Virus record (IMG/VR): IMGVR_UViG_2541047757_000015
Length of the DNA: 37,859 bases
Reading direction: 5' to 3' (one strand)
Origin: a virus
Taxonomy: Duplodnaviria > Heunggongvirae > Uroviricota > Caudoviricetes
Shown: piece by piece, positions 5,868-22,705 of the stretch
Numbering within the stretch: position 1 is the stretch's first letter
Layout: each line of letters opens with the position of its first letter
Program-made: the position numbers and the translations under genes
Notes under the pieces: generated by a model
Databases searched by the model: none
The model's input: the letters and a program-made list of their open reading frames with translations, nothing else
What the model was told of the DNA's origin: nothing

Positions 5868-6692
5868 TCAGGCGGTGAAAGTACCAATAAAGGTTTCTAC
5901 TTTGCTGTCTTTGAATTTCTCAACAAGCAGATCACGAAATTCGTTAGCCATTTCTTCCTGGACTGCTTCCAACTGAATAATGCGCAGAACCAGTACAGGA
6001 CGATCGCCAGTGATAATGCTGAGGCGTAATTTAAACGGACGTTCTTTCAGACTTTCAAACGGAATGCATTTAAATTCAAATGCCACTGGCATAATATCTT
6101 TGGTCTTCGCTTCGACAGACTCCATCAGGGAGCGTTTTCCGCTGAAGTCATTATCTTCAAAATCAGCGGTCTGGTTTGCTTCAATCGTGATTTTACGGAC
6201 AGCCGCAGCCGCTTTTGTTGCCTGAATAGCGTCACCATTAGCATCAAAGCCTACAAGGTAGTCGGCCCAGTCTTCAATCCATTCTGCCAGTGACTTCTGG
6301 GAGTTACGCTCGCCGTTAACAGACAACAGAGCAGAGAACGGTGCTGTCTTTTTCAGTTTGAGAGTGGCAGTGTTATCTGCGTGACCTGGTTCATCAATAG
6401 TACCCAGGTTAAGCACACTGACGGCACGCATATTATCAGCATCGATAAAGCAGCGGGTGCCTTCATCTGCAAGATCTTTAGAATAACGGGTAAAGTCATC
6501 GATGCTGGCAGTGGAAAGCGCACCACGGAAACGGAAGCGATTTAAATTAAATTTTTCCAGATCATGAATGCGGAAATTCTCAGGCAATGCCACAGCATCG
6601 GCACCAATCTTACTGATAATTTCATTAACACCCTGAGCAGAAATAAGGGCATGGATTTGATTAATTGCGGTTGCGTCTAAGTTCTGAGACAT
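5868..6692 (-). CDS. yfdQ: YfdQ-like prophage protein (DUF2303 family)
   Basis: 274-aa ORF, ATG with GAGGA ribosome-binding site; length and position next to the HD protein match the CPS-53 yfdQ-yfdR arrangement as I recall it. Confidence 0.65.
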
Positions 6693-6757: not shown

Positions 6758-7120
6758 TTAATGACCTGCTGCGCGTAGTTTTCCGTCAGGCTCACCGGCA
6801 AGAGTCAGTAATTGTCCCTGGTCTTCCTGCAGAATAGTCAGGCGACCACCGCGATTGACATACATCGGCGTTTCGGTGGTGTCTTCTTCGGAAATTTTCC
6901 CGCGGTTAGTTGGGCGAACATATGAGAGTTTGTGTTTGATTTTCACACGGTTCTCATCAAACGGTTCGATTTCCAGATTGAGTGAGACCTTCCCTTTGGT
7001 TTTCGTGTTCATCACACCGGAAGCGACTTCACTGAGAACTGCGCCGATTTTGGTTTCAAATACGCCGCCGTCCAGCTCCCCGATAAATGCCTGCACATCA
7101 GTACTGCGTTCGCTAGCCAT
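6758..7120 (-). CDS. yfdP: YfdP-like prophage protein, first gene of the leftward early operon
   Basis: Internal ATG (MASERS...) preceded by GAGGAG gives 120 aa; lies directly downstream, on the leftward transcript, of the structured GC-rich leader. Confidence 0.55.
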   Translation of the reverse strand: MASERSTDVQAFIGELDGGVFETKIGAVLSEVASGVMNTKTKGKVSLNLEIEPFDENRVKIKHKLSYVRPTNRGKISEEDTTETPMYVNRGGRLTILQEDQGQLLTLAGEPDGKLRAAGH

Positions 7121-7139
7121 TTTGCTGCTCCTCATCATA

Positions 7140-7560
7140 TCGACCCTGCAAGGTCGGTTGGTTTCTCCACAAAACAGAGAAGAACACCTGGGTGGCAGCC
7201 GCCCGGATGGATTGGGTTATGAGCCCGTCGTCCGGTGATGCTCTTCTCTGTTTTGTAAAAAGAGCGGTGCCAGCCGGAAGCAAGTGTACAAACTGGTACC
7301 GCCAAAGCAGTGGCTGTTGTGGTGCCGGGTGCCTCCCGGTGCCTGGCGAAGGTTGCACACCAGGCGGGTGGGTATCCACAGAAGGTCGACTGTCAGCCTC
7401 AACCTTAACCCGCGTGCGCTGAGCCGCATTCACCACAACGCTAAGGATTCTCTCTGGTTGAAAATACTTAGCTGTTATGTGCCTGCTTTTAGCCACATCA
7501 GGCGAGGTGGACCTGGTTATTCCCCAACAACAAGGATTCGGTTAATCTTGATACCCCCAA
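7140..7560 (-). promoter_or_regulatory. GC-rich non-coding leader with a boxA-like motif and a 15-bp-stem hairpin; candidate nutL/put-like antitermination element or structured RNA
   Basis: Perfect 15-nt inverted repeat ACAAAACAGAGAAGA / TCTTCTCTGTTTTGT enclosing ~50 nt; on the minus strand GCTCTTTTTA (boxA-like) lies just 5' of the hairpin; ORFs here are Pro/Arg-rich and not protein-like. Confidence 0.3.
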
Positions 7561-7580
7561 TAACATGGTGATTATTTAAG

Positions 7581-8084
7581 ATGGACAAATTTGATAGAAG
7601 TGCACAAAGGCAGTTGTTACAAATACTGTATGATGCTCATCCTTATGAAATTTCTGATGATGCGTTGCAGTCTGTTCGTGACGCATTTGGAGATGATAAT
7701 GTCCTAATTTCGAACTTAATTTATCTCGAAGAACATGGCTTGATTAAGAATGCTCTTGATTATTACTTGGATGGCATAAATATAAATATTCCTGAATTAA
7801 GAATTACTAAAGATGGAATTGATTTCATTCGTGATGATGGAGGTCTTAAAGCTATTCTTGGGATTATGACAATAAGATTGCATGATGAGACTCTCTGTGA
7901 ACTTGAACGTATCATCAATAGTTCTACTTCTGCCACGACTGAAGATAAGAAGAAATTACTCTCTCAGCTTCGAACGCTTCCTGCCGACGCCATAAAACAG
8001 CTGACGATTCGATTACTTGGTCAGGGGCTTGACCATCTGCCGGACGTATTTCACGTAATTCAAAAAGCCCTCCATTCTCTGTAA
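7581..8084 (+). CDS. Hypothetical AT-rich accessory protein, possibly winged-helix-like at the N-terminus
   Basis: 167-aa ORF, ATG start, opposite orientation to flanking phage genes; TTGATA -35-like hexamer upstream placing a possible start near the ATG; own terminator downstream. Confidence 0.55.
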   Translation: MDKFDRSAQRQLLQILYDAHPYEISDDALQSVRDAFGDDNVLISNLIYLEEHGLIKNALDYYLDGININIPELRITKDGIDFIRDDGGLKAILGIMTIRLHDETLCELERIINSSTSATTEDKKKLLSQLRTLPADAIKQLTIRLLGQGLDHLPDVFHVIQKALHSL

Positions 8085-8262
8085 ATTCTGATTCTGGTCG
8101 GATTAGACAGAATCGTCCCCATCCGACCTGCTTACTAAGTAGAATCCAGAATTCGTCTTGTTGGTTGGTGCTGATAAAAAATCCATTAGGATGAACGTAA
8201 GCACAGAATATGACCATAGAACCCTCTTTTGTTACGGGGATACTAAGATTGTTAAAGAGCTA

Positions 8263-8286
8263 AGCGTCCTGTAGGGCGCTTTTTTG
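8263..8286 (+). terminator. Rho-independent terminator for the 7581..8084 gene
   Basis: Stem AGCGTCC / GGGCGCT with loop TGTA followed by TTTTTTG. Confidence 0.5.
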
Positions 8287-8370
8287 TTGCTAACGAATCA
8301 TCCGGTCATTCATACGCCACCGGCGGCTACTTCGTGGGCGTCCTGCCTGTCCGTGATAGCTTACATTATG

Positions 8371-8422
8371 TTGCTACTTAAAGTAGCAAAAATCAACAAC
8401 AAAAAGTAGATATTTGTTGTTG
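8371..8422. promoter_or_regulatory. 19-bp perfect palindrome plus adjacent 10-bp-stem hairpin; candidate left operator (O_L-like) for the CI repressor
   Basis: TTGCTACTT-A-AAGTAGCAA palindrome; adjacent CAACAACAAA ... TTTGTTGTTG inverted repeat; AAGTAG core is shared with the direct repeats at the cI start. Confidence 0.4.
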
Positions 8423-8607
8423 TCTATGATTTTTCTATAATTAATTGAAAGTTAAATGTTTTTGCTGATTTACTATGCTGTAAACTGAAAATATCGCACG
8501 AAGTTGGAGTAGGTATTGAGCATAGTGAATTATGAGGAGGGAGTTTTTTATGAGATTAATCAGGGAGAAAGAAGAGTAAAGCCCGGTTATGCGGCCGGGC
8601 ACATGCA

Positions 8608-9684
8608 TTACTTTGTAAGTTCTAGAACTCGTTGAGCCAGCCCTTTAAATTGTTCGTTAAAGGCGTCTCTGCTTGATTTCATTGTATTTAAGGCATGCCC
8701 AAATTGCCCTGAATCGCGAATTTGCTGATCACTGATGGAGAAAACAGGTGTCGCTAGTTGTTGGCTTATTGCGATTAATGAGTTGAAATCGGAAATATGC
8801 GCAAGATCATAGGCTGATAAATCTCCACTGACTGTTGTTTTGTTAATTGCATGTTGCACTTTATCTCGTGGAATTATGCAGGTAATTTTTTCTAGATTTG
8901 GCACTAAGATCGAATCAACAGCATCACGGATAGCTGCCATCCATTTTTCGAAAGATTTTACAGGTGCTCCTTTACGCGGCCTGTATCTCTGCTGAATCAT
9001 ACCTAGAAACTGCGGTGCATTTTTAATTGATTGTGAAGAGTTACCATCATTATTTTCTTTAAATAATGCTAATTCTTTGTGCCAGCGAGGTATATTTTTT
9101 GAGAGAGAGCGAATTGCTTGCCAGCAAAAAAAGTCTGGAGCTACAGGTACGATAAAATAGTCACTTGACATGAGAACTACTTCATTTAAACCTCCAACAT
9201 TAGGGCTGAGATCATAAAGAATGTAATCAATATTATTCTTCATGGCGATTAGCTGTAATATTTTTGGCAGGTTCCCTGGTATATTTCTTGTAGCAGGAAT
9301 ACCAGCAGCAATTTTTAGAGAAACACTTATCTGTGAATCTAAGTCCGAAACATCTAAATGTCCGGGAAGAAGCAGAAGGTTTTCATGCAGTGTAGGGTGT
9401 AATTTTCCCGTTTCTTTTTCAAGGTATGCTTCAGGTTGTCCGCCATTAATCAAATATTCTACAATAGGTCCAAGAGTTAAGTTATCTCTGCTAGAATAAA
9501 AAGAATCTAAACCCTCATCAATCTTTTCATAGCCAAGAACCATTCCTGTTAGATTACATTGCGAATCAAGGTCAACCATCAATACTTTCTTGCCTTCATC
9601 CGCAAGTGCCCATCCAAGATTGAAGGTTGTTGTGGTTTTACTTACCCCACCTTTATGATTAAAAAAACAAATTGATTTTGTCAT
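8608..9684 (-). CDS. ParA/MinD-superfamily ATPase with a long C-terminal extension; orphan, no ParB seen
   Basis: 358-aa ORF; deviant Walker A NHKGGVSKTTT at the N-terminus, A' motif VLMVDLDSQCN, Walker B-like ILYDLSP; directly downstream of cI on the same strand; AT-rich. Confidence 0.8.
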   Translation of the reverse strand: MTKSICFFNHKGGVSKTTTTFNLGWALADEGKKVLMVDLDSQCNLTGMVLGYEKIDEGLDSFYSSRDNLTLGPIVEYLINGGQPEAYLEKETGKLHPTLHENLLLLPGHLDVSDLDSQISVSLKIAAGIPATRNIPGNLPKILQLIAMKNNIDYILYDLSPNVGGLNEVVLMSSDYFIVPVAPDFFCWQAIRSLSKNIPRWHKELALFKENNDGNSSQSIKNAPQFLGMIQQRYRPRKGAPVKSFEKWMAAIRDAVDSILVPNLEKITCIIPRDKVQHAINKTTVSGDLSAYDLAHISDFNSLIAISQQLATPVFSISDQQIRDSGQFGHALNTMKSSRDAFNEQFKGLAQRVLELTK

Positions 9685-9854: not shown

Positions 9855-10616
9855 CTAAAGCCGGTTGTATTTAATTGATTCGTGTATCAATGCTTTGCCC
9901 ATAACATAAAGTTGATCTTGGGACTTCTCATCAATGTACCATTTCTCATAGGCTGGATTATCCGAAAGAACGGCGAGTTTGTTGCCTTGCATTTGTAGAC
10001 GTTTAACGTGGAACGTCTTACCATAAACGAAAGAGTAAACACCATCAGTTTGGAAGTTGCGAACAGAAATGTCGACAAACAGTCGATCTCCGGAAACTAG
10101 AGTAGGGGACATGCTGTCGCCATTTACAGTCATAACTTTAATATCATCTTGAGAACGATTACCGAAAAGAGAACGGGCATGCTCTGTTGTGAACTCAATG
10201 GCGTAGAGCACATCAACATAGTCTGAAAGCATATAGGTTCCAGGTCCTGCGCTAACGCTAAGATCCAAAACTTCTATCCTGTATACATCGGGTTTTGTTG
10301 GATTGGGGATGCTTGCCATTTCCTTACATCCTTCTCTCTCGCCAACACCATATTCTAAATATGAAGCTGATACCCCCAGAGCCAATGCAAGTTTATTCAT
10401 GACAGAGGCACGAGGCTTCGCAGCGCCGATTGTGTATCGCCGCGCCATTTCATATGTAACGCCCACAAGACTTTTGAGTTGGGTGACAGAAATTCCCTTG
10501 TTTGTCATTAGCTCGTTTAGTCTCTTGGCGAAATCTGGATACTTCTGTTCTTCTACCATAGGTAGAAGGTTACTCGCATCACATACGCTAGTCATTTCTA
10601 TTTTAAGTAGTTGCAT
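9855..10616 (-). CDS. CI-like phage repressor (N-terminal HTH plus C-terminal S24 LexA-like peptidase domain)
   Basis: HTH region GISVTQLKSLVGVTYEMARRY; Ala-Gly cleavage site (SVSAGPG); S24 motifs GDSMSPT and HVKRL; divergent from the cro-like gene. Confidence 0.85.
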   Translation of the reverse strand: MQLLKIEMTSVCDASNLLPMVEEQKYPDFAKRLNELMTNKGISVTQLKSLVGVTYEMARRYTIGAAKPRASVMNKLALALGVSASYLEYGVGEREGCKEMASIPNPTKPDVYRIEVLDLSVSAGPGTYMLSDYVDVLYAIEFTTEHARSLFGNRSQDDIKVMTVNGDSMSPTLVSGDRLFVDISVRNFQTDGVYSFVYGKTFHVKRLQMQGNKLAVLSDNPAYEKWYIDEKSQDQLYVMGKALIHESIKYNRL

Positions 10617-10633
10617 TCTGCTATTTTAAGTAG
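10598..10633. promoter_or_regulatory. Candidate right operator region: two direct repeats CTATTTTAAGTAG spanning the cI start and the cI-cro intergenic region
   Basis: Seen directly; shares the AAGTAG core with the palindrome at 8371..8389; cI-cro intergenic is only ~49 bp, so the cI transcript may be leaderless. Confidence 0.45.
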
Positions 10634-10665
10634 CATCATCCCTCTGAATTTCAGAGGAGAAAGGT

Positions 10666-12940: not shown

Positions 12941-13594
12941 ATGAGTAATAAATATTGTCAGGCGCTGGTGGAGCTGCGGAACAAACCATCCCATGAACTG
13001 AAGGAGGTGGGCGATCAGTGGCGCACGCCGGACAGCATTTTCTGGGGAATTAACACCTTGTTTGGCCCGTTTGTTCTGGATCTGTTCACTGACGGTGATA
13101 ACGCCAAATGTGCCGCGTATTACACGGCGGAAGACAACGCGCTGGCGCATGACTGGTCAGAACGCCTTGCGGAGCTTAAAGGTGCTGCCTTTGGCAATCC
13201 CCCATACAGTCGCGCCAGTCAGCATGAGGGGCAATACATCACCGGCATGCGTTACATCATGAAACATGCCAGTGCCATGCGTGATAAGGGCGGGCGCTAT
13301 GTTTTCCTGATCAAAGCTGCCACCAGCGAAGTGTGGTGGCCGGAAGATGCGGACCATATTGCTTTTATTCGCGGGCGTATTGGTTTTGAACTGCCTGCCT
13401 GGTTTATCCCGAAAGATGAGAAGCAGGTGCCGACAGGCGCTTTCTTCGCTGGTGCTATTGCTGTTTTTGACAAGACCTGGAAGGGACCGGCAATCAGCTA
13501 CATCGGGCGCGATGAACTTGAGGCATGTGGTGAGGCCTTTCTGGCGCAGGTTCGCCAGCAGGCAGAAAAACTGGTCAGGGAGATGGTGGCATGA
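12941..13594 (+). CDS. Phage N6-adenine DNA methyltransferase (Dam-like, NPPY motif)
   Basis: Internal ATG (MSNKYCQ...); motif GNPPYS; ~217 aa; stop overlaps the rusA start. Confidence 0.8.
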   Translation: MSNKYCQALVELRNKPSHELKEVGDQWRTPDSIFWGINTLFGPFVLDLFTDGDNAKCAAYYTAEDNALAHDWSERLAELKGAAFGNPPYSRASQHEGQYITGMRYIMKHASAMRDKGGRYVFLIKAATSEVWWPEDADHIAFIRGRIGFELPAWFIPKDEKQVPTGAFFAGAIAVFDKTWKGPAISYIGRDELEACGEAFLAQVRQQAEKLVREMVA

Positions 13595-13999: not shown

Positions 14000-14809
14000 A
14001 TGAATAATCTGATGGTCATTGATGGTATTGAAGTTCGTCGTGATGCTTATGGGCGTTACAGCCTGAACGATCTGCATCGCGCAGCAGTAGCATCTGGTGC
14101 AAATGCCAGAACCAAGGAGCCAGGAAAGTTTCTTTCCAGCCAACAAACTGTTGAACTTGTTCATGAATTGACCAACACCCAGAATTTGGGTGTTGACCCG
14201 GTGAGTGTGATTCATGGGGGAAATGAACGGGGAACGTATGTCTGCAAAGAACTGGTGTATGCCTATGCAATGTGGATCAGCCCGTCATTCCATCTGAAGG
14301 TGATCCGTACTTTCGACATGGTAACCAGCGCACCGGAAAAATTATCCGGACAGGCTGCTGACAAGATGCAGGCTGGTGTGATTCTGCTGGACTTTATGCG
14401 CCGGGAATTAAACCTGTCTAACTCTTCAGTGCTTGGTGCCTGCCAGAAACTCCAGGAGGCTGTTGGCTTACCGAATCTGGCACCGCGCTATGCCATTGAT
14501 GCTCCTGCTGATGCACACGATGGCTCAAGTCGCCCCACGCTGTCGCTGAGTGCACTGCTGAGGCAGTATGGTATCCGCCTGACGGCTAATCAGGCATATC
14601 ACCAGATGGTGACGCTGGGGATCGTTGAACAACGCGAACGATACAGCCGTACCGCGATTAACAACATCAAAAAATTCTGGTCGCTGACGGCGAAAGGCTG
14701 CATGTTCGGCAAGAACATCACCAGTCCTGCAAATCCGCGCGAGACGCAGCCGCATTTCTTCGAATCCCGATTCCCTGAGCTGTTAAAGCTGCTCGATACC
14801 GTTCATTGA
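14000..14809 (+). CDS. KilA-N domain protein / antirepressor-like
   Basis: Internal ATG with GAGGAG ribosome-binding site; N-terminal KilA-N-like region (MVIDGIEVRRDAYGRYSLNDLHRA ... YAMWISPSFHLKVI). Confidence 0.7.
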   Translation: MNNLMVIDGIEVRRDAYGRYSLNDLHRAAVASGANARTKEPGKFLSSQQTVELVHELTNTQNLGVDPVSVIHGGNERGTYVCKELVYAYAMWISPSFHLKVIRTFDMVTSAPEKLSGQAADKMQAGVILLDFMRRELNLSNSSVLGACQKLQEAVGLPNLAPRYAIDAPADAHDGSSRPTLSLSALLRQYGIRLTANQAYHQMVTLGIVEQRERYSRTAINNIKKFWSLTAKGCMFGKNITSPANPRETQPHFFESRFPELLKLLDTVH

Positions 14810-14810
14810 G

Positions 14811-15806
14811 GTGACCGTGAGAGCACTACTGACCCCTGAAATTGCCCCGCGTATGGGGATTGTATTGTTCAGGCCAGGTTCAGAGCTGATGCCCCTGTTT
14901 ATGCAGGGGCGTGTCCTGCTGGAGCCTGAGCCGGAACGTTATTCATCTTTCGCCAGTGGTGCCGTTCCGGCGGCATCACAACCGCTGGCGGATGATCCTG
15001 CCGTTCGGGCCGTGTTCCGCAATGAGGCAGTGATCCGTCGTGCTGGTGGCGTGGAATGTCTTGAAAGCTGGTTACTTCGTGAAAAGGGCTGTCAGTGGCC
15101 TCATTCCGACTGGCACAGCGAGAACATGACCACAATGCGGCACGCTCCGGGAGCAATTCGTCTGTGCTGGCACTGCGATAACCAGCTGCGTGACCAGTTC
15201 ACGGAACGGCTGGAATCAATGGCAACGGATAACTGTGCCCGCTGGGTGTTGTCTGTCGTGCGTCGGGATCTCGGTTTTGATGACAGTCACGTTGTGACAA
15301 TGCCGGAACTGTGCTGGTGGCTGGTTCGTAATGATTTGGCGGATGCCTTACCGGAAAGTGCAGCCCGTAAGGCACTGAGATTACCGAAGCCTGTTGTGCC
15401 ATCTGTCACCCGGGAAAGTGACCTTGTGCCTTCGGTTCCTGCCACCAGCATCATCCAGGATAAAGCGAAAAAGGTGCTGGCGCTGAAAGTGGATCCGGAG
15501 TCGCCGGAGTCTTTTATGTTACGCCCCAAACGTCGCCGCTGGGTTAATGAAAAGTACACGCGCTGGGTTAAGACGCAGCCGTGCGCATGTTGTGGAAAGC
15601 CAGCTGATGATTCCCACCACCTGATAGGCCACGGTCAGGGTGGAATGGGTACAAAAGCGCATGATCTCTTTGTGTTGCCTTTGTGCAGAAAGCATCACGA
15701 CGAGCTGCATGCGGATACCGTGACATTTGAAGAGAAGTATGGCTCCCAACTGGAGCTGATATTTCGTTTTATCGATCGTGCGCTGGCAATTGGCGTACTG
15801 GCGTAA
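14811..15806 (+). CDS. DUF968-family protein (YdfU-like), cysteine/histidine-rich C-terminus
   Basis: GTG start; C-terminal CACCGKPADDSHHLIGHGQGGMGTKAHD ... CRKHHDELH; sits just upstream of the Q-like gene as in Qin. Confidence 0.65.
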   Translation: MTVRALLTPEIAPRMGIVLFRPGSELMPLFMQGRVLLEPEPERYSSFASGAVPAASQPLADDPAVRAVFRNEAVIRRAGGVECLESWLLREKGCQWPHSDWHSENMTTMRHAPGAIRLCWHCDNQLRDQFTERLESMATDNCARWVLSVVRRDLGFDDSHVVTMPELCWWLVRNDLADALPESAARKALRLPKPVVPSVTRESDLVPSVPATSIIQDKAKKVLALKVDPESPESFMLRPKRRRWVNEKYTRWVKTQPCACCGKPADDSHHLIGHGQGGMGTKAHDLFVLPLCRKHHDELHADTVTFEEKYGSQLELIFRFIDRALAIGVLA

Positions 15807-15819
15807 GTGGAGAACGAGC

Positions 15820-16572
15820 ATGAACCTTGAAGCCTTACCAAAATATTACTCCCCAAAATCTCCAAAATTGAGTGATGCCGCACCGGCGACAGGCTCAGGT
15901 GGTTTAACGATTACGGATGTGATGGCTGCGCAGGGGATGGTGCAGTCGAAAGCACCGCTTGGGTTTGCCTTATTCCTGGCAAAAGCTGGCGTTCAGGATC
16001 CTCAGTTTGCGATTGAAGGTCTGCTCAATTACGCGATGGCACTGGATAACCCGACATTGAACAAATTGAGTGAAGAAATCCGGTTACAGATCATCCCTTA
16101 CCTTGTGAGTTTTGCCTTTGCTGATTATTCCAGGTCTGCGGCAAGTAAGGCTCGCTGTGAGCCTTGTGCTGGTACTGGATTTCATAATGTATTGCGCGAA
16201 GTGGTGAAATACTCCAGAAGCGGGGAGTCTGTTATCAAGGAAGAGTGGGTGAAGGAACTATGTCAGCATTGTCATGGTAAGGGAGAAGTCAGCACAGCGT
16301 GCAGAGGGTGTAAGGGTAAAGGTATTGTCCTGGATGAAAAAAGGACCCGGCTTCATGGCGCGCCTGTTTATAAGATTTGTGGGCGTTGCAATGGAAACCG
16401 GTTTAGTCGTTTACCAACGACACTGGCGCGGTGTCATGTCCAGAAGCTGGTACCAGACCTGACTGATTATCAGTGGTACAAAGGATATGCAGATGTCATT
16501 GATAAACTGGTTACAAAGTGCTGGCAGGAAGAAGCATATGCTGAGGTGCAATTAAGAAAAGTGACGAGATAA
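15820..16572 (+). CDS. Late-gene antiterminator Q-like protein
   Basis: Internal ATG with GGAG ribosome-binding site; zinc-ribbon cysteines (CEPCAGTG, CQHCHGKG, CRGCKGKG); followed by a strong terminator and then the late-region genes. Confidence 0.7.
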   Translation: MNLEALPKYYSPKSPKLSDAAPATGSGGLTITDVMAAQGMVQSKAPLGFALFLAKAGVQDPQFAIEGLLNYAMALDNPTLNKLSEEIRLQIIPYLVSFAFADYSRSAASKARCEPCAGTGFHNVLREVVKYSRSGESVIKEEWVKELCQHCHGKGEVSTACRGCKGKGIVLDEKRTRLHGAPVYKICGRCNGNRFSRLPTTLARCHVQKLVPDLTDYQWYKGYADVIDKLVTKCWQEEAYAEVQLRKVTR

Positions 16573-17200: not shown

Positions 17201-17500
17201 AAAAATTCCTTAATACTGATAACTGGGCGCACTATACACACGTTCCTGAAGAAAGCTATAGTTTTTTGATGGGGTTGAAGATGGCTGGATGTCTAAAATA
17301 AACATTGCTTCATATGTTCAACTATGCGTTAATGATTGCGTCGGTTTGAAGAACAGACGATATACGAAGTAGTTTACTAAAGCAGTTCTCATTTCAGGTG
17401 TTATTCACTTATTCCTTCTTTGAGTCTCTCCAATTAAGTACGAAGTCGTTTCTGTTATACAAGCCATTTATGCCGAAAGGCTCAAGTTAAGGAATGTAGA

Positions 17501-17716
17501 ATGTCAAATAAAATGACTGGTTTAGTAAAATGGTTTAACGCTGATAAAGGTTTTGGCTTTATTTCTCCTGTTGATGGTAGTAAAGATGTGTTTGTGCATT
17601 TTTCTGCGATTCAGAATGATAATTTTCGAACCTTGTTTGAAGGTCAAAAGGTTACCTTCTCTGTAGAGAGTGGTGCTAAAGGTCCTGCAGCAGCAAATGT
17701 CATAATTACTGATTAA
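17501..17716 (+). CDS. cspB: Cold-shock protein CspB-like
   Basis: 71 aa, [38 protein letters not shown] ... nucleic-acid-binding cold-shock domain. Confidence 0.85.
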
Positions 17717-17994
17717 AATTCATAGTTTGTCTGTATACGATAACGAAGAAGGCTGATGCCTGAGTGGAGATACAGACAGAGTGGTGAATATTGGATCTCT
17801 TTAATAAATAGTAAGGAGGTCCAATACATGAAACAATGGCCAGCATATTTGGCAATAACTTAATCAGGAAAAGTATGCTAACCATTGTGGTGAAGTGCAG
17901 GTTTGCTGCATGAATAGTTTTACAGCAGAAGCTAACTGCTGGCATAGCAAAACAAAGTGCGTAAGTGGATGACTCCCACAAAAAGTACCACAAT

Positions 17995-21925: not shown

Positions 21926-22285
21926 ATTAATATTAAATCGGATTATTTTTAGCGCTGAATGTGAAATTTAAATAAAAAGGACTCTTCCATGAGTCAAAAT
22001 CCTTGAAATCTTAAGGGTAAGATAAAAGGTCATTAGACAGAATGACACGTTTTATTAATAAATAAAGCTATTGTTTCATTCGTGTGTTTTTCTTTACAAA
22101 AGTAATCCTTGCTATGGTTGGTTAATCATGCGTTAATGGTGTTCTGGTTTGTTACAAAATTATCTGAAGCAGTCATTGTTATAATTTTATTATTTGTACC
22201 TCTTGAGATTTCCTTGTTGGTTTTTCTCTCTGATATTTTTTTTCGGACCATTCTGCCCAAGGGCTAACTTCTTCAAAAGGTAATA

Positions 22286-22501
22286 ATGATGTTTAACAAA
22301 ATGACTGGTTTAGTGAAATGGTTTAACCCTGAAAAAGGTTTTGGTTTCATCACGCCGAAAGATGGTAGCAAAGATGTGTTTGTGCATTTCTCAGCTATTC
22401 AGAGCAACGATTTCAAAACGTTAACTGAGAATCAGGAAGTCGAATTTGGTATTGAGAACGGACCTAAAGGCCCTGCAGCTGTTCATGTAGTGGCACTTTG
22501 A
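22286..22501 (+). CDS. cspI: Cold-shock protein CspI-like
   Basis: [38 protein letters not shown] ... cold-shock domain. Confidence 0.85.
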
Positions 22502-22705
22502 GGTAGAAAATATTACAAACCATATTCACTTTAGATGCCCGTGTTGCCATGGTTCTCAGTATAGAACATCATCTTTTGATGTTTCTGACAGAAATCCTTT
22601 CGGGGCAAAATGTATCTTTTGTAAATCAATGATGATTACATTTGATAATATTTCACAATACTTAAATGTTAGCCATCTGTCGTTAGATTTAAGAAAGTGA
22701 AAATG

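Follow-up and report, generated by a model that had tools for sequence, protein, structure and literature searches.

We analysed the gap in front of the yfdP gene in a 37,859-nucleotide stretch of Caudoviricetes DNA (IMG/VR record IMGVR_UViG_2541047757_000015), which is called the window below and always means the whole stretch. The window is a lambdoid prophage, and its segment 7100-7600 was present as a 99.8% identical copy in E. coli NCTC86, adjoining tRNA-Arg. As RefSeq places the yfdP start of the identical prophage at 7120, the non-coding gap extended over 7121-7580. An earlier reading of the sequence, here called the original prediction, had described a GC-rich structured leader at 7140-7560 and had proposed either an RNA-based antitermination element or a small RNA (sRNA). 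Our analysis pointed to a multi-part non-coding RNA region on the minus strand, in the sense of yfdP, and we give this explanation as a whole a probability of about 0.7. The features of the region, in the order of the minus strand, were as follows.

7478-7548, minus strand: A0, the conserved flank of an antisense cargo slot, with CCACCUCGCCUGAUGUGGCUAAAAGCAGGC (7510-7481) and a possible pseudoknot
7440-7472, minus strand: A1, the hairpin GCUAAG...CUUAGC of the minimum free energy fold, immediately 5' of the sRNA body
7316-7439, minus strand: B, the multibranch sRNA body, with a 9-bp closing helix of GUUGUGGUG (7439-7431) and CACCACAAC (7324-7316)
7304-7315, minus strand: the 12-nt linker AGCCACUGCUUU
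7257-7303, minus strand: C, a Rho-independent terminator with the hairpin GGCGGUACCAG...CUGGCACCGC (7303-7264) and the U-tract UCUUUUU (7263-7257)
7160-7263, minus strand: D, a three-way-junction RNA of 104 nt
7261-7237 and 7188-7164, minus strand: helix P1 of D, 20 bp plus five pairs with the U-tract, the long hairpin of the original prediction
7235-7203, minus strand: helix P2 of D, with the invariant GACGGGCUCAUAACCCAAUCCAUC (7229-7206)
7226-7214, minus strand: the anticodon-arm-like hairpin GGG-CUCAUAA-CCC in P2
7202-7190, minus strand: helix P3 of D, a small hairpin
7141-7156, minus strand: E, the hairpin CGACC-UUGCAG-GGUCG, 3' of D and 5' of the ribosome-binding site
7133-7128, minus strand: the Shine-Dalgarno sequence GAGGAG of yfdP
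6758-7120, minus strand: yfdP (RefSeq annotation of the identical prophage), heading the conserved early-left block that begins yfdP-yfdQ-yfdR

The gap was GC-rich as originally described, with a GC content of 0.53-0.60 across 7100-7500 against 0.32-0.45 in the flanks. The open reading frames (ORFs) of 70-127 aa called mechanically within it gave no match in a Pfam search, and the longest open frame was broken by a 1-nt indel in the 99.8% identical relative. Among relatives, indels of 1, 9 and 20 nt occurred, and the substitutions lacked codon periodicity (32/29/26). These results upheld the view that the gap contains no real ORF. The long inverted repeat was also real, consisting of 18-nt arms (7169-7186 and 7239-7256) that were 94% complementary and separated by 52 nt. 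Its sole mismatch was a G-U pair on the minus strand, and the helix reached 25 bp when G-U pairs were counted. The fold of the repeat gave z-scores of -6.2 (window copy) and -8.2 (consensus copy), a stability that none of 200 shuffles attained, and folding of the whole gap gave -4.2 on the minus strand and -2.25 on the plus strand. The segment 7100-7600 matched 2861 of 5426 complete E. coli genomes, and also the phages SfV, SfII, SfIV, mEp460 and ST64B as well as Stx2 phages, with mosaic breakpoints. In CPS-53 of E. coli K-12, the structured region was absent and only the last ~25 nt before yfdP were kept, so that the transcript maps of K-12 are uninformative here.

The fold of D was supported by an alignment of 56 distinct long-stem copies from about 14 genera. 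In this alignment 97.4% of the cells were paired, compared with 43-51% when the partners were slid; nine pairs were altered on both sides, and the observed score was reached by none of 500 shuffles. G-U pairs were frequent, on the minus strand only, and the covariance model of D scored 109.5 bits on the minus strand and 31 on the plus strand. When the whole window was searched with the filters off, the model found a single copy, at 7160-7263 on the minus strand. Among the copies, P3 was as small as a 4-bp hairpin or as large as a branched insert of ~45 nt. The exact 24-mer GACGGGCTCATAAYCCAATCCATC occurred in more than 120 viral contigs, and a degenerate form in 23 species-representative genomes. 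The genera with D were Escherichia, Shigella, Citrobacter, Enterobacter, Kosakonia, Mixta, Buttiauxella, Leclercia, Phytobacter, Pseudescherichia, Pseudocitrobacter, Erwinia, Klebsiella and Raoultella, and the Salmonella phage ST64B carried it too. A contig labelled Chryseobacterium sp. 18061 (L241) also held a typical enterobacterial D with its terminator, which is probably due to contamination or assembly mislabelling.

The original prediction had named folding and covariation across related prophages, together with an Rfam search, as checks. The former supported the D fold as described above, and the region was neither a decayed coding sequence nor devoid of compensatory base changes. The Rfam search gave a divided answer, in that D had no family and the sRNA body matched STnc100 below the threshold. 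D is a well-supported RNA motif without an Rfam family. Solid covariation, the absence of an Rfam entry and the invariant arm resembling that of initiator tRNA make it a candidate new RNA family, which is carried by roughly half of the complete E. coli genomes, judging from the matches to the region, and by prophages of about 14 enterobacterial genera. Readings of D as a retron RNA, a Y-RNA-like RNA or YrlA, prompted by the combination of a long stem with a tRNA-like module, were discarded, as no reverse transcriptase was found nearby and no Rfam model matched at E<=10.

Upstream of D, the minus strand carried an sRNA gene of about 180-190 nt (7439-7257), composed of the multibranch body, the linker and the intrinsic terminator. 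In E-value mode, the Rfam model STnc100 (RF02076) matched 7318-7437 on the minus strand with 35.6 bits (E 6.2e-6) at model positions 31-147 of 206, spanning the multibranch core including CCGGGAGGCACCCGGCACCA. The body contained the multibranch domain closed by UGGUG/CACCA and the terminal hairpin CCGGGAGGCACCCGG of STnc100, followed by the terminator. At gathering thresholds, Rfam left the gap empty and yielded only two cspA matches elsewhere in the window.

The ends of this gene corresponded to those of an experimentally defined RNA. In E. coli K1 RS218, an mEp460-like prophage encodes sRNA-17, a 193-nt RNA defined by Northern blotting and 5'/3' rapid amplification of cDNA ends (RACE) (Sun et al. 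2020, PMC7719688), and in the supplementary alignment of that study sRNA-17 extends from GTTGTGGTGAATGCG... to ...CTGGTACCGCTCTTTT. When placed through mEp460 and this alignment, sRNA-17 occupied exactly body, linker and terminator in mEp460 (L264 2813-2621), with the long hairpin and yfdP following at once, and its 3' RACE end mapped to terminator C. The same study classed CP019778, from a strain identical to the window, as "degenerative sRNA-17" (PMC7719688). The linker of the window was identical to that of sRNA-17 in mEp460, and SfV and ST64B had linkers different from AGCCACUGCUUU. At least eight unrelated bodies were found within the same GUUGUGGUG...CACCACAAC closing strands across the loci of relatives. 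The cassette of the window joins the closing helix, linker and terminator of sRNA-17 to a body that is a homologue of the STnc100 core. This sRNA is a new cassette variant of the known prophage sRNAs (sRNA-17, STnc100/PasD). Of the two proposals in the original prediction, it was thus the sRNA or other structured RNA that proved right. By analogy with sRNA-17, the sRNA would be produced in lysogens as an RNA of ~180-190 nt and would be expected to act in trans, and terminator C would keep both its transcription and that from further upstream out of the early-left lytic genes.

Terminator C was surveyed in viral and genome contigs, which supplied 57 intact, non-redundant variants of this upstream segment. 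A GC-rich stem of 8-13 bp ending 0-2 nt before a run of U4-7 was present in 56 of them, with at least seven different stem sequences, including GGCGGUACCAG, GUCGGCGUC, GGCGGCAUC, GCCCAUCAC and GGCGGUUAUCC. Hairpin and U-run were therefore conserved through compensatory change, as is characteristic of an intrinsic terminator; a generic terminator scan had missed C because its loop exceeds 8 nt. The string GCTCTTTTTA at 7265-7256 on the minus strand, just 5' of the long hairpin, consisted of the 3' arm and U-tract of this terminator. At the position of GCTCTTTTTA/GCUCUUUUU, the relatives had GUCCUUUUU, GCACUUUUUU, GCAUUUUUUU, GCCCUUUUU or GACCUUUUU, and in Mixta it was absent. What was conserved at this site was the pairing with the 5' arm of the GC-rich hairpin and the run of 4-7 U, which indicated an intrinsic terminator. 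The boxA-like string of the original prediction was indeed present 5' of the hairpin, but its identity as boxA was not sustained, as its core letters varied freely among relatives.

The surroundings of the gap were as follows.

Left part of the window, minus strand: integrase, yfdT, yfdR, yfdQ and yfdP
7581-8084, plus strand: a 167-aa ORF, cargo, antisense to the early-left transcript from the leftward promoter PL
8365-8396, minus strand: probable PL with the palindrome TTGCTACTTTAAGTAGCAA (8371-8389) of the operator OL, resembling the OR sites at 10596-10636
8608-9684, minus strand: a gene for a ParA-like ATPase, cargo between the repressor and the early-left block
9855-10616, minus strand: an S24/HTH repressor
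Divergent from the repressor: a cro-like gene
15778-16569: the Q antiterminator

Its sequence suggests that the leftward-firing PL at ~8365-8396 is probably the origin of the early-left transcript. The gene map of the original prediction had to be redrawn accordingly, as the next ORF (7581-8084) lies on the plus strand and the PL/OL-like site stands ~0.9-1.1 kb upstream. The stretch 7140-7560 thus lies in the leader of the early-left operon, at that distance from PL, with the antisense cargo gene between. In the prophage of Mixta tenebrionis, cro, the repressor and an OL/PL block near-identical to 8410-8370 of the window were followed after ~25 nt by D, hairpin E and yfdP-yfdQ-yfdR, with neither an sRNA nor a terminator between PL and D. 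This arrangement indicated that D is the ancestral leader of the PL operon, and that the sRNA, the terminator and the antisense cargo gene were inserted between PL and D. In the window D lies ~1.1 kb from PL, downstream of terminator C.

In all loci, 30-160 nt separated D from the first ORF downstream, irrespective of which ORF this was, and together with E it preceded first genes that differed by locus (yfdP-like, yfdR-like, rdgC-like and others). P1 was followed by the conserved GGAGAAAC and then by hairpin E, whose stems in relatives (GCCCC/GGGGC, CGGCGG/CCGCC, AGCGCC/GGCGCU) carried loops of the U(U/G)GCAG type. A pairing of the D loop with the downstream start codon was discarded, being inconsistent across the differing first genes. 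D occurred in only 3 of 100 further loci with an STnc100-type hairpin, so that it is not a general companion of STnc100 and the two modules are independent. D is a separate and older module, the standard PL-operon leader of this phage group.

Several observations were made beside these. The U(U/G)GCAG hexaloop of hairpin E recurred in P3 of D in other genera (L237, L243, L235, L247, L251, L256), which points to a ligand in common or a preferred folding of this loop. The probable OL/PL block of the window (8365-8425, minus strand) comprised CAACAACAAA...TTTGTTGTTG, TTGATT and the palindrome TTGCTACTTTAAGTAGCAA; it was near-identical in the Mixta tenebrionis prophage (L239 1490-1545), and the sequences from PL to D were wholly different. 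BLAST matches confined to A0 occurred in the lambda-like phages ev017 and Hafnia Pocitis76, beside the start of the antisense sieB gene, and variants with CCACCGAGCC...GUGGUG were seen in relatives; A0 seems to mark the edge of the cargo slot. On its minus strand, the pairings CCAC/GUGG and GCCUG/CAGGC would allow an H-type pseudoknot. At the position of A1, ST64B had GAUAAGAGUU...AACUCUUAUC, a compensatory change. Around A1, CACAUAAC (7474-7481) can pair with GUUGUG (7434-7439), which would compete with the helix that closes the sRNA body, and loci of Kosakonia and Leclercia had a perfect CACAAC...GUUGUG at that place; this pairing may represent an alternative fold or a remnant of an exchange of cassettes.

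The 167-aa ORF had no family match in a Pfam search. Over its N-terminal 40 aa only, the ParA-like ATPase weakly matched PDC-M28B, a candidate system of PADLOC (E 6e-9), and a hairpin at 8262-8281 looked like a terminator in both directions. The two cspA matches noted above were full-length matches to the Rfam cspA thermoregulator (17340-17779 and 22131-22547, plus strand, 160 and 105 bits) and point to cold-shock-protein-like genes with long 5' untranslated regions in the late region of the prophage. In ST64B, matches to isrK and C4 antisense RNA stood side by side to the right of the immunity region (L005 6732-6920).

Relatives of the D core were also found outside the leader. Phages of the Klebsiella type carried the same 24-mer immediately 3' of tRNA-Asn/tRNA-Arg, downstream of Q, within a three-helix RNA of ~70 nt that had an acceptor-like helix of 6-7 bp and ended in RCCA in 14 of 15 variants; the helix with RCCA was present in these relatives only. 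They scored 35-40 bits with the D model (E ~1e-7). In their alignment P1 and P2 were invariant and P3 covaried, for example GCGUUG/CAACGC against GCGCUG/CAGCGY. One viral contig (L104) held both forms, the long-stem leader at 6040-6146 and the tRNA-like, RCCA-ended form at 14615-14681. ARAGORN reported no tRNA or tmRNA in the window and only two true tRNAs in the locus L003, and the Rfam tRNA models matched neither D nor the Klebsiella form at E<=10. A search of the Klebsiella element against Rfam in E-value mode yielded no meaningful match. The hairpin GGG-CUCAUAA-CCC agreed with the anticodon arm of E. coli tRNA-fMet at 15 of 17 positions, including the three G-C pairs typical of initiators, although this is a resemblance only.

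For the function of D, we tentatively prefer a two-step mechanism, at clearly less than even odds. Helices of ~20 bp or more are substrates of RNase III, and the near-perfect P1 helix of 20-25 bp is therefore an expected substrate in E. coli. When PL is active, RNase III would cut P1 and thereby create a defined 5' end of the early-left mRNA, and the same cut would free a small tRNA-like core RNA. The freed core would be the same core that is found in the late tRNA array of the Klebsiella-type phages with its RCCA end, where it is apparently matured by the tRNA pathway.

Several points weigh against the proposed explanation. The STnc100 match covered the core only and fell short of the gathering score (35.6 vs 47 bits) of the full model, and the body of sRNA-17 itself had no Rfam match in E-value mode, STnc100 included. 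A consensus scan of the minus strand of 7140-7600 gave no sigma-70-like promoter, and inspection by eye showed no convincing -10/-35 before the sRNA body; the sRNA may acquire its 5' end by processing, or be transcribed only from PL. Transcript evidence was confined to homologues (Northern/RACE; PMC7719688, PMC5331693). The terminator stem of the window had one A-C mismatch (7268/7297), and its D had a 1-nt deletion in P3, with which the fold is predicted to weaken from -51.2 to -45.6 kcal/mol, both of which may reflect slight degradation; one of these two departures was also seen in a near-identical relative. The resemblance of D to tRNA was limited to one arm, with ARAGORN and Rfam blind to both forms, and RNase III cleavage and core release are steps that we infer for D. 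Finally, deletion of sRNA-17 raised yfdP ~95-fold and also raised yfdR (PMC7719688), which could stem from read-through out of the resistance cassette inserted in the deletion strain. The rise fits loss of the terminator, and we regard the effect on yfdP as a "target" as probably a cis effect of that loss.

The antitermination role proposed in the original prediction was weighed with a covariance model of put built from seven RNAs (HK022 putL and putR, HK639 putL and four further phage homologues). That D or the whole leader acts as a processive antiterminator RNA in cis, in the manner of HK022 put, agrees with its place at the head of the PL operon, which in the Mixta prophage is immediately behind PL, as for putL, and with its strong conservation and structure in a phage where no N-like ORF was found near PL. 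The ORFs there were Pfam-negative and the only antiterminator found was Q, in line with the original statement on the lack of an N-like gene nearby. The put model, however, scored 93 bits for HK022 putL, 46.7 for putR and 93 for HK639, but at best 5.6 bits (E 9.5; at 13328 and 14943) in the window, with nothing in 7140-7560 or behind PL. An RNA just behind PL (8350-8290) with a vague likeness to putL also failed this model. D exists in one copy, with none behind PR, and its 25-bp helix and three-way junction differ from the two irregular stem-loops of ~70 nt in put. In most prophages D follows a terminator rather than preceding one; the one strong terminator of the leader is reached by the polymerase before D, too early for the hairpin to aid its passage, and from D to the operon's end the minus strand showed no strong intrinsic terminator. 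Moreover, homologous cores are tRNA-like genes in a Q-controlled late operon. We therefore consider a put-like role unlikely. The proposal of an early-left leader element in an N-less phage thus holds for membership of the PL-operon leader, but hardly for antitermination, and the question arises of how N-less lambdoid phages handle this leader. Still less probable is a nut-type site, that is, a boxA and hairpin for an N-like protein or host Nus factors. The GCUCUUUUUACAA just 5' of the hairpin does resemble the boxA of rrn and lambda (GCUCUUUAACAA), but its core positions vary among relatives while stem pairing and U-run are kept, the Mixta copy lacks it, the neighbouring structure is the 25-bp P1 helix and not a short boxB hairpin, and no N-like protein was found near PL. 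Model, copy number, unconserved boxA and missing N together led us to reject the gap as a member of either family, put or nut. A protein-coding gene in decay, or an element that works at the DNA level (cruciform, recombination site or single-strand origin), could be suspected from the mechanical ORFs of up to 127 aa, from the hypothetical proteins annotated here in some phage records and from mosaic breakpoints that coincide with module boundaries. The ORFs were nonetheless Pfam-negative, with frame-breaking indels and no codon periodicity among close relatives; G-U pairs were confined to the minus strand, the D model gave 109 bits there against 31 on the other strand, and a homologous RNA has been detected by Northern blotting and RACE, all of which leaves this reading very little room.

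A more serious competitor, doubtful in itself and about equal to the RNase III mechanism, is that D is purely a cis element for stability or translation, acting with hairpin E and without a trans product. The distance of 30-160 nt kept to the first ORF in all loci, the conserved GGAGAAAC and hairpin E after P1, and the location of the Mixta D at the 5' end of the PL transcript all fit such a role. A plain stabiliser, however, would need no 24-nt arm that stays invariant across ~14 genera while the other helices covary, and the core in the tRNA array, with its CCA end, serves no downstream ORF. At a smaller probability, which makes it unlikely, D may be a phage tRNA gene remodelled to mimic the anticodon arm of initiator tRNA, with a core freed in lytic growth and acting in trans. 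Release would be due to RNase III for the form in the PL leader and to tRNA-processing enzymes for the form in the Klebsiella late array, and the freed core could be a decoy for host nucleases that attack the anticodon loop of tRNA-fMet (VapC-type toxins, other anticodon nucleases) or, alternatively, a ligand of the 30S P site, IF3 or MetRS. If this were true, D would represent a new class of phage RNA for counter-defence or translation hijacking. The probability left after the RNase III mechanism, the cis element and the put-like role is assigned to other explanations of D.

Compared with known systems, D shares with the leader hairpins processed by RNase III, such as those of the lambda N leader and the T7 early region as generally known, a long near-perfect helix that stands in the untranslated leader of an early operon, after the promoter and before the first ribosome-binding site. 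It differs from them in its conserved three-way-junction cap with the invariant arm, and cleavage of D itself is presumed. The phage tRNA genes downstream of Q are similar in that the Klebsiella-type relatives of D reside in such arrays with an acceptor-like helix, RCCA and the CUCAUAA loop. However, these Klebsiella-type relatives lack the D arm and the T-loop motif of tRNA, and in the window the place of the acceptor end is taken by the 25-bp helix running into the mRNA.

The sRNA of the window and sRNA-17 both lie directly upstream of D and yfdP. They share the GUUGUGGUG start and the 3' part consisting of CACCACAAC, AGCCACUGCUUU and the terminator, which has one base different in the window copy. 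In contrast, their bodies are unrelated, with 135 nt in sRNA-17 and an STnc100-like body of 124 nt here, and the reported ArcA control and trans targets of sRNA-17 are not transferable to the window copy. STnc100/PasD, prophage sRNAs of Salmonella, enterohaemorrhagic and enteropathogenic E. coli (EHEC, EPEC), resemble the window body in the multibranch domain with UGGUG/CACCA closure and AAU junction, in the first GC hairpin and the terminal hairpin CCGGG-AGGCA-CCCGG, and, for canonical STnc100, in the order of core and intrinsic terminator. The 5' leader and the terminator of STnc100 are different from those of the window. A reported STnc100 copy is situated 75 nt downstream of stx2 (PMC12370729), and PasD is close to Q and the lysis genes (bioRxiv 10.64898/2026.05.13.724894); unlike the sRNA of the window, neither of them belongs to a PL leader. 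sRNA-17 appears to be one body in a scaffold of exchangeable cassettes, in which a constant closing helix, linker and terminator accommodate at least eight unrelated bodies, and the cassette of the window links this scaffold to the STnc100/PasD family.

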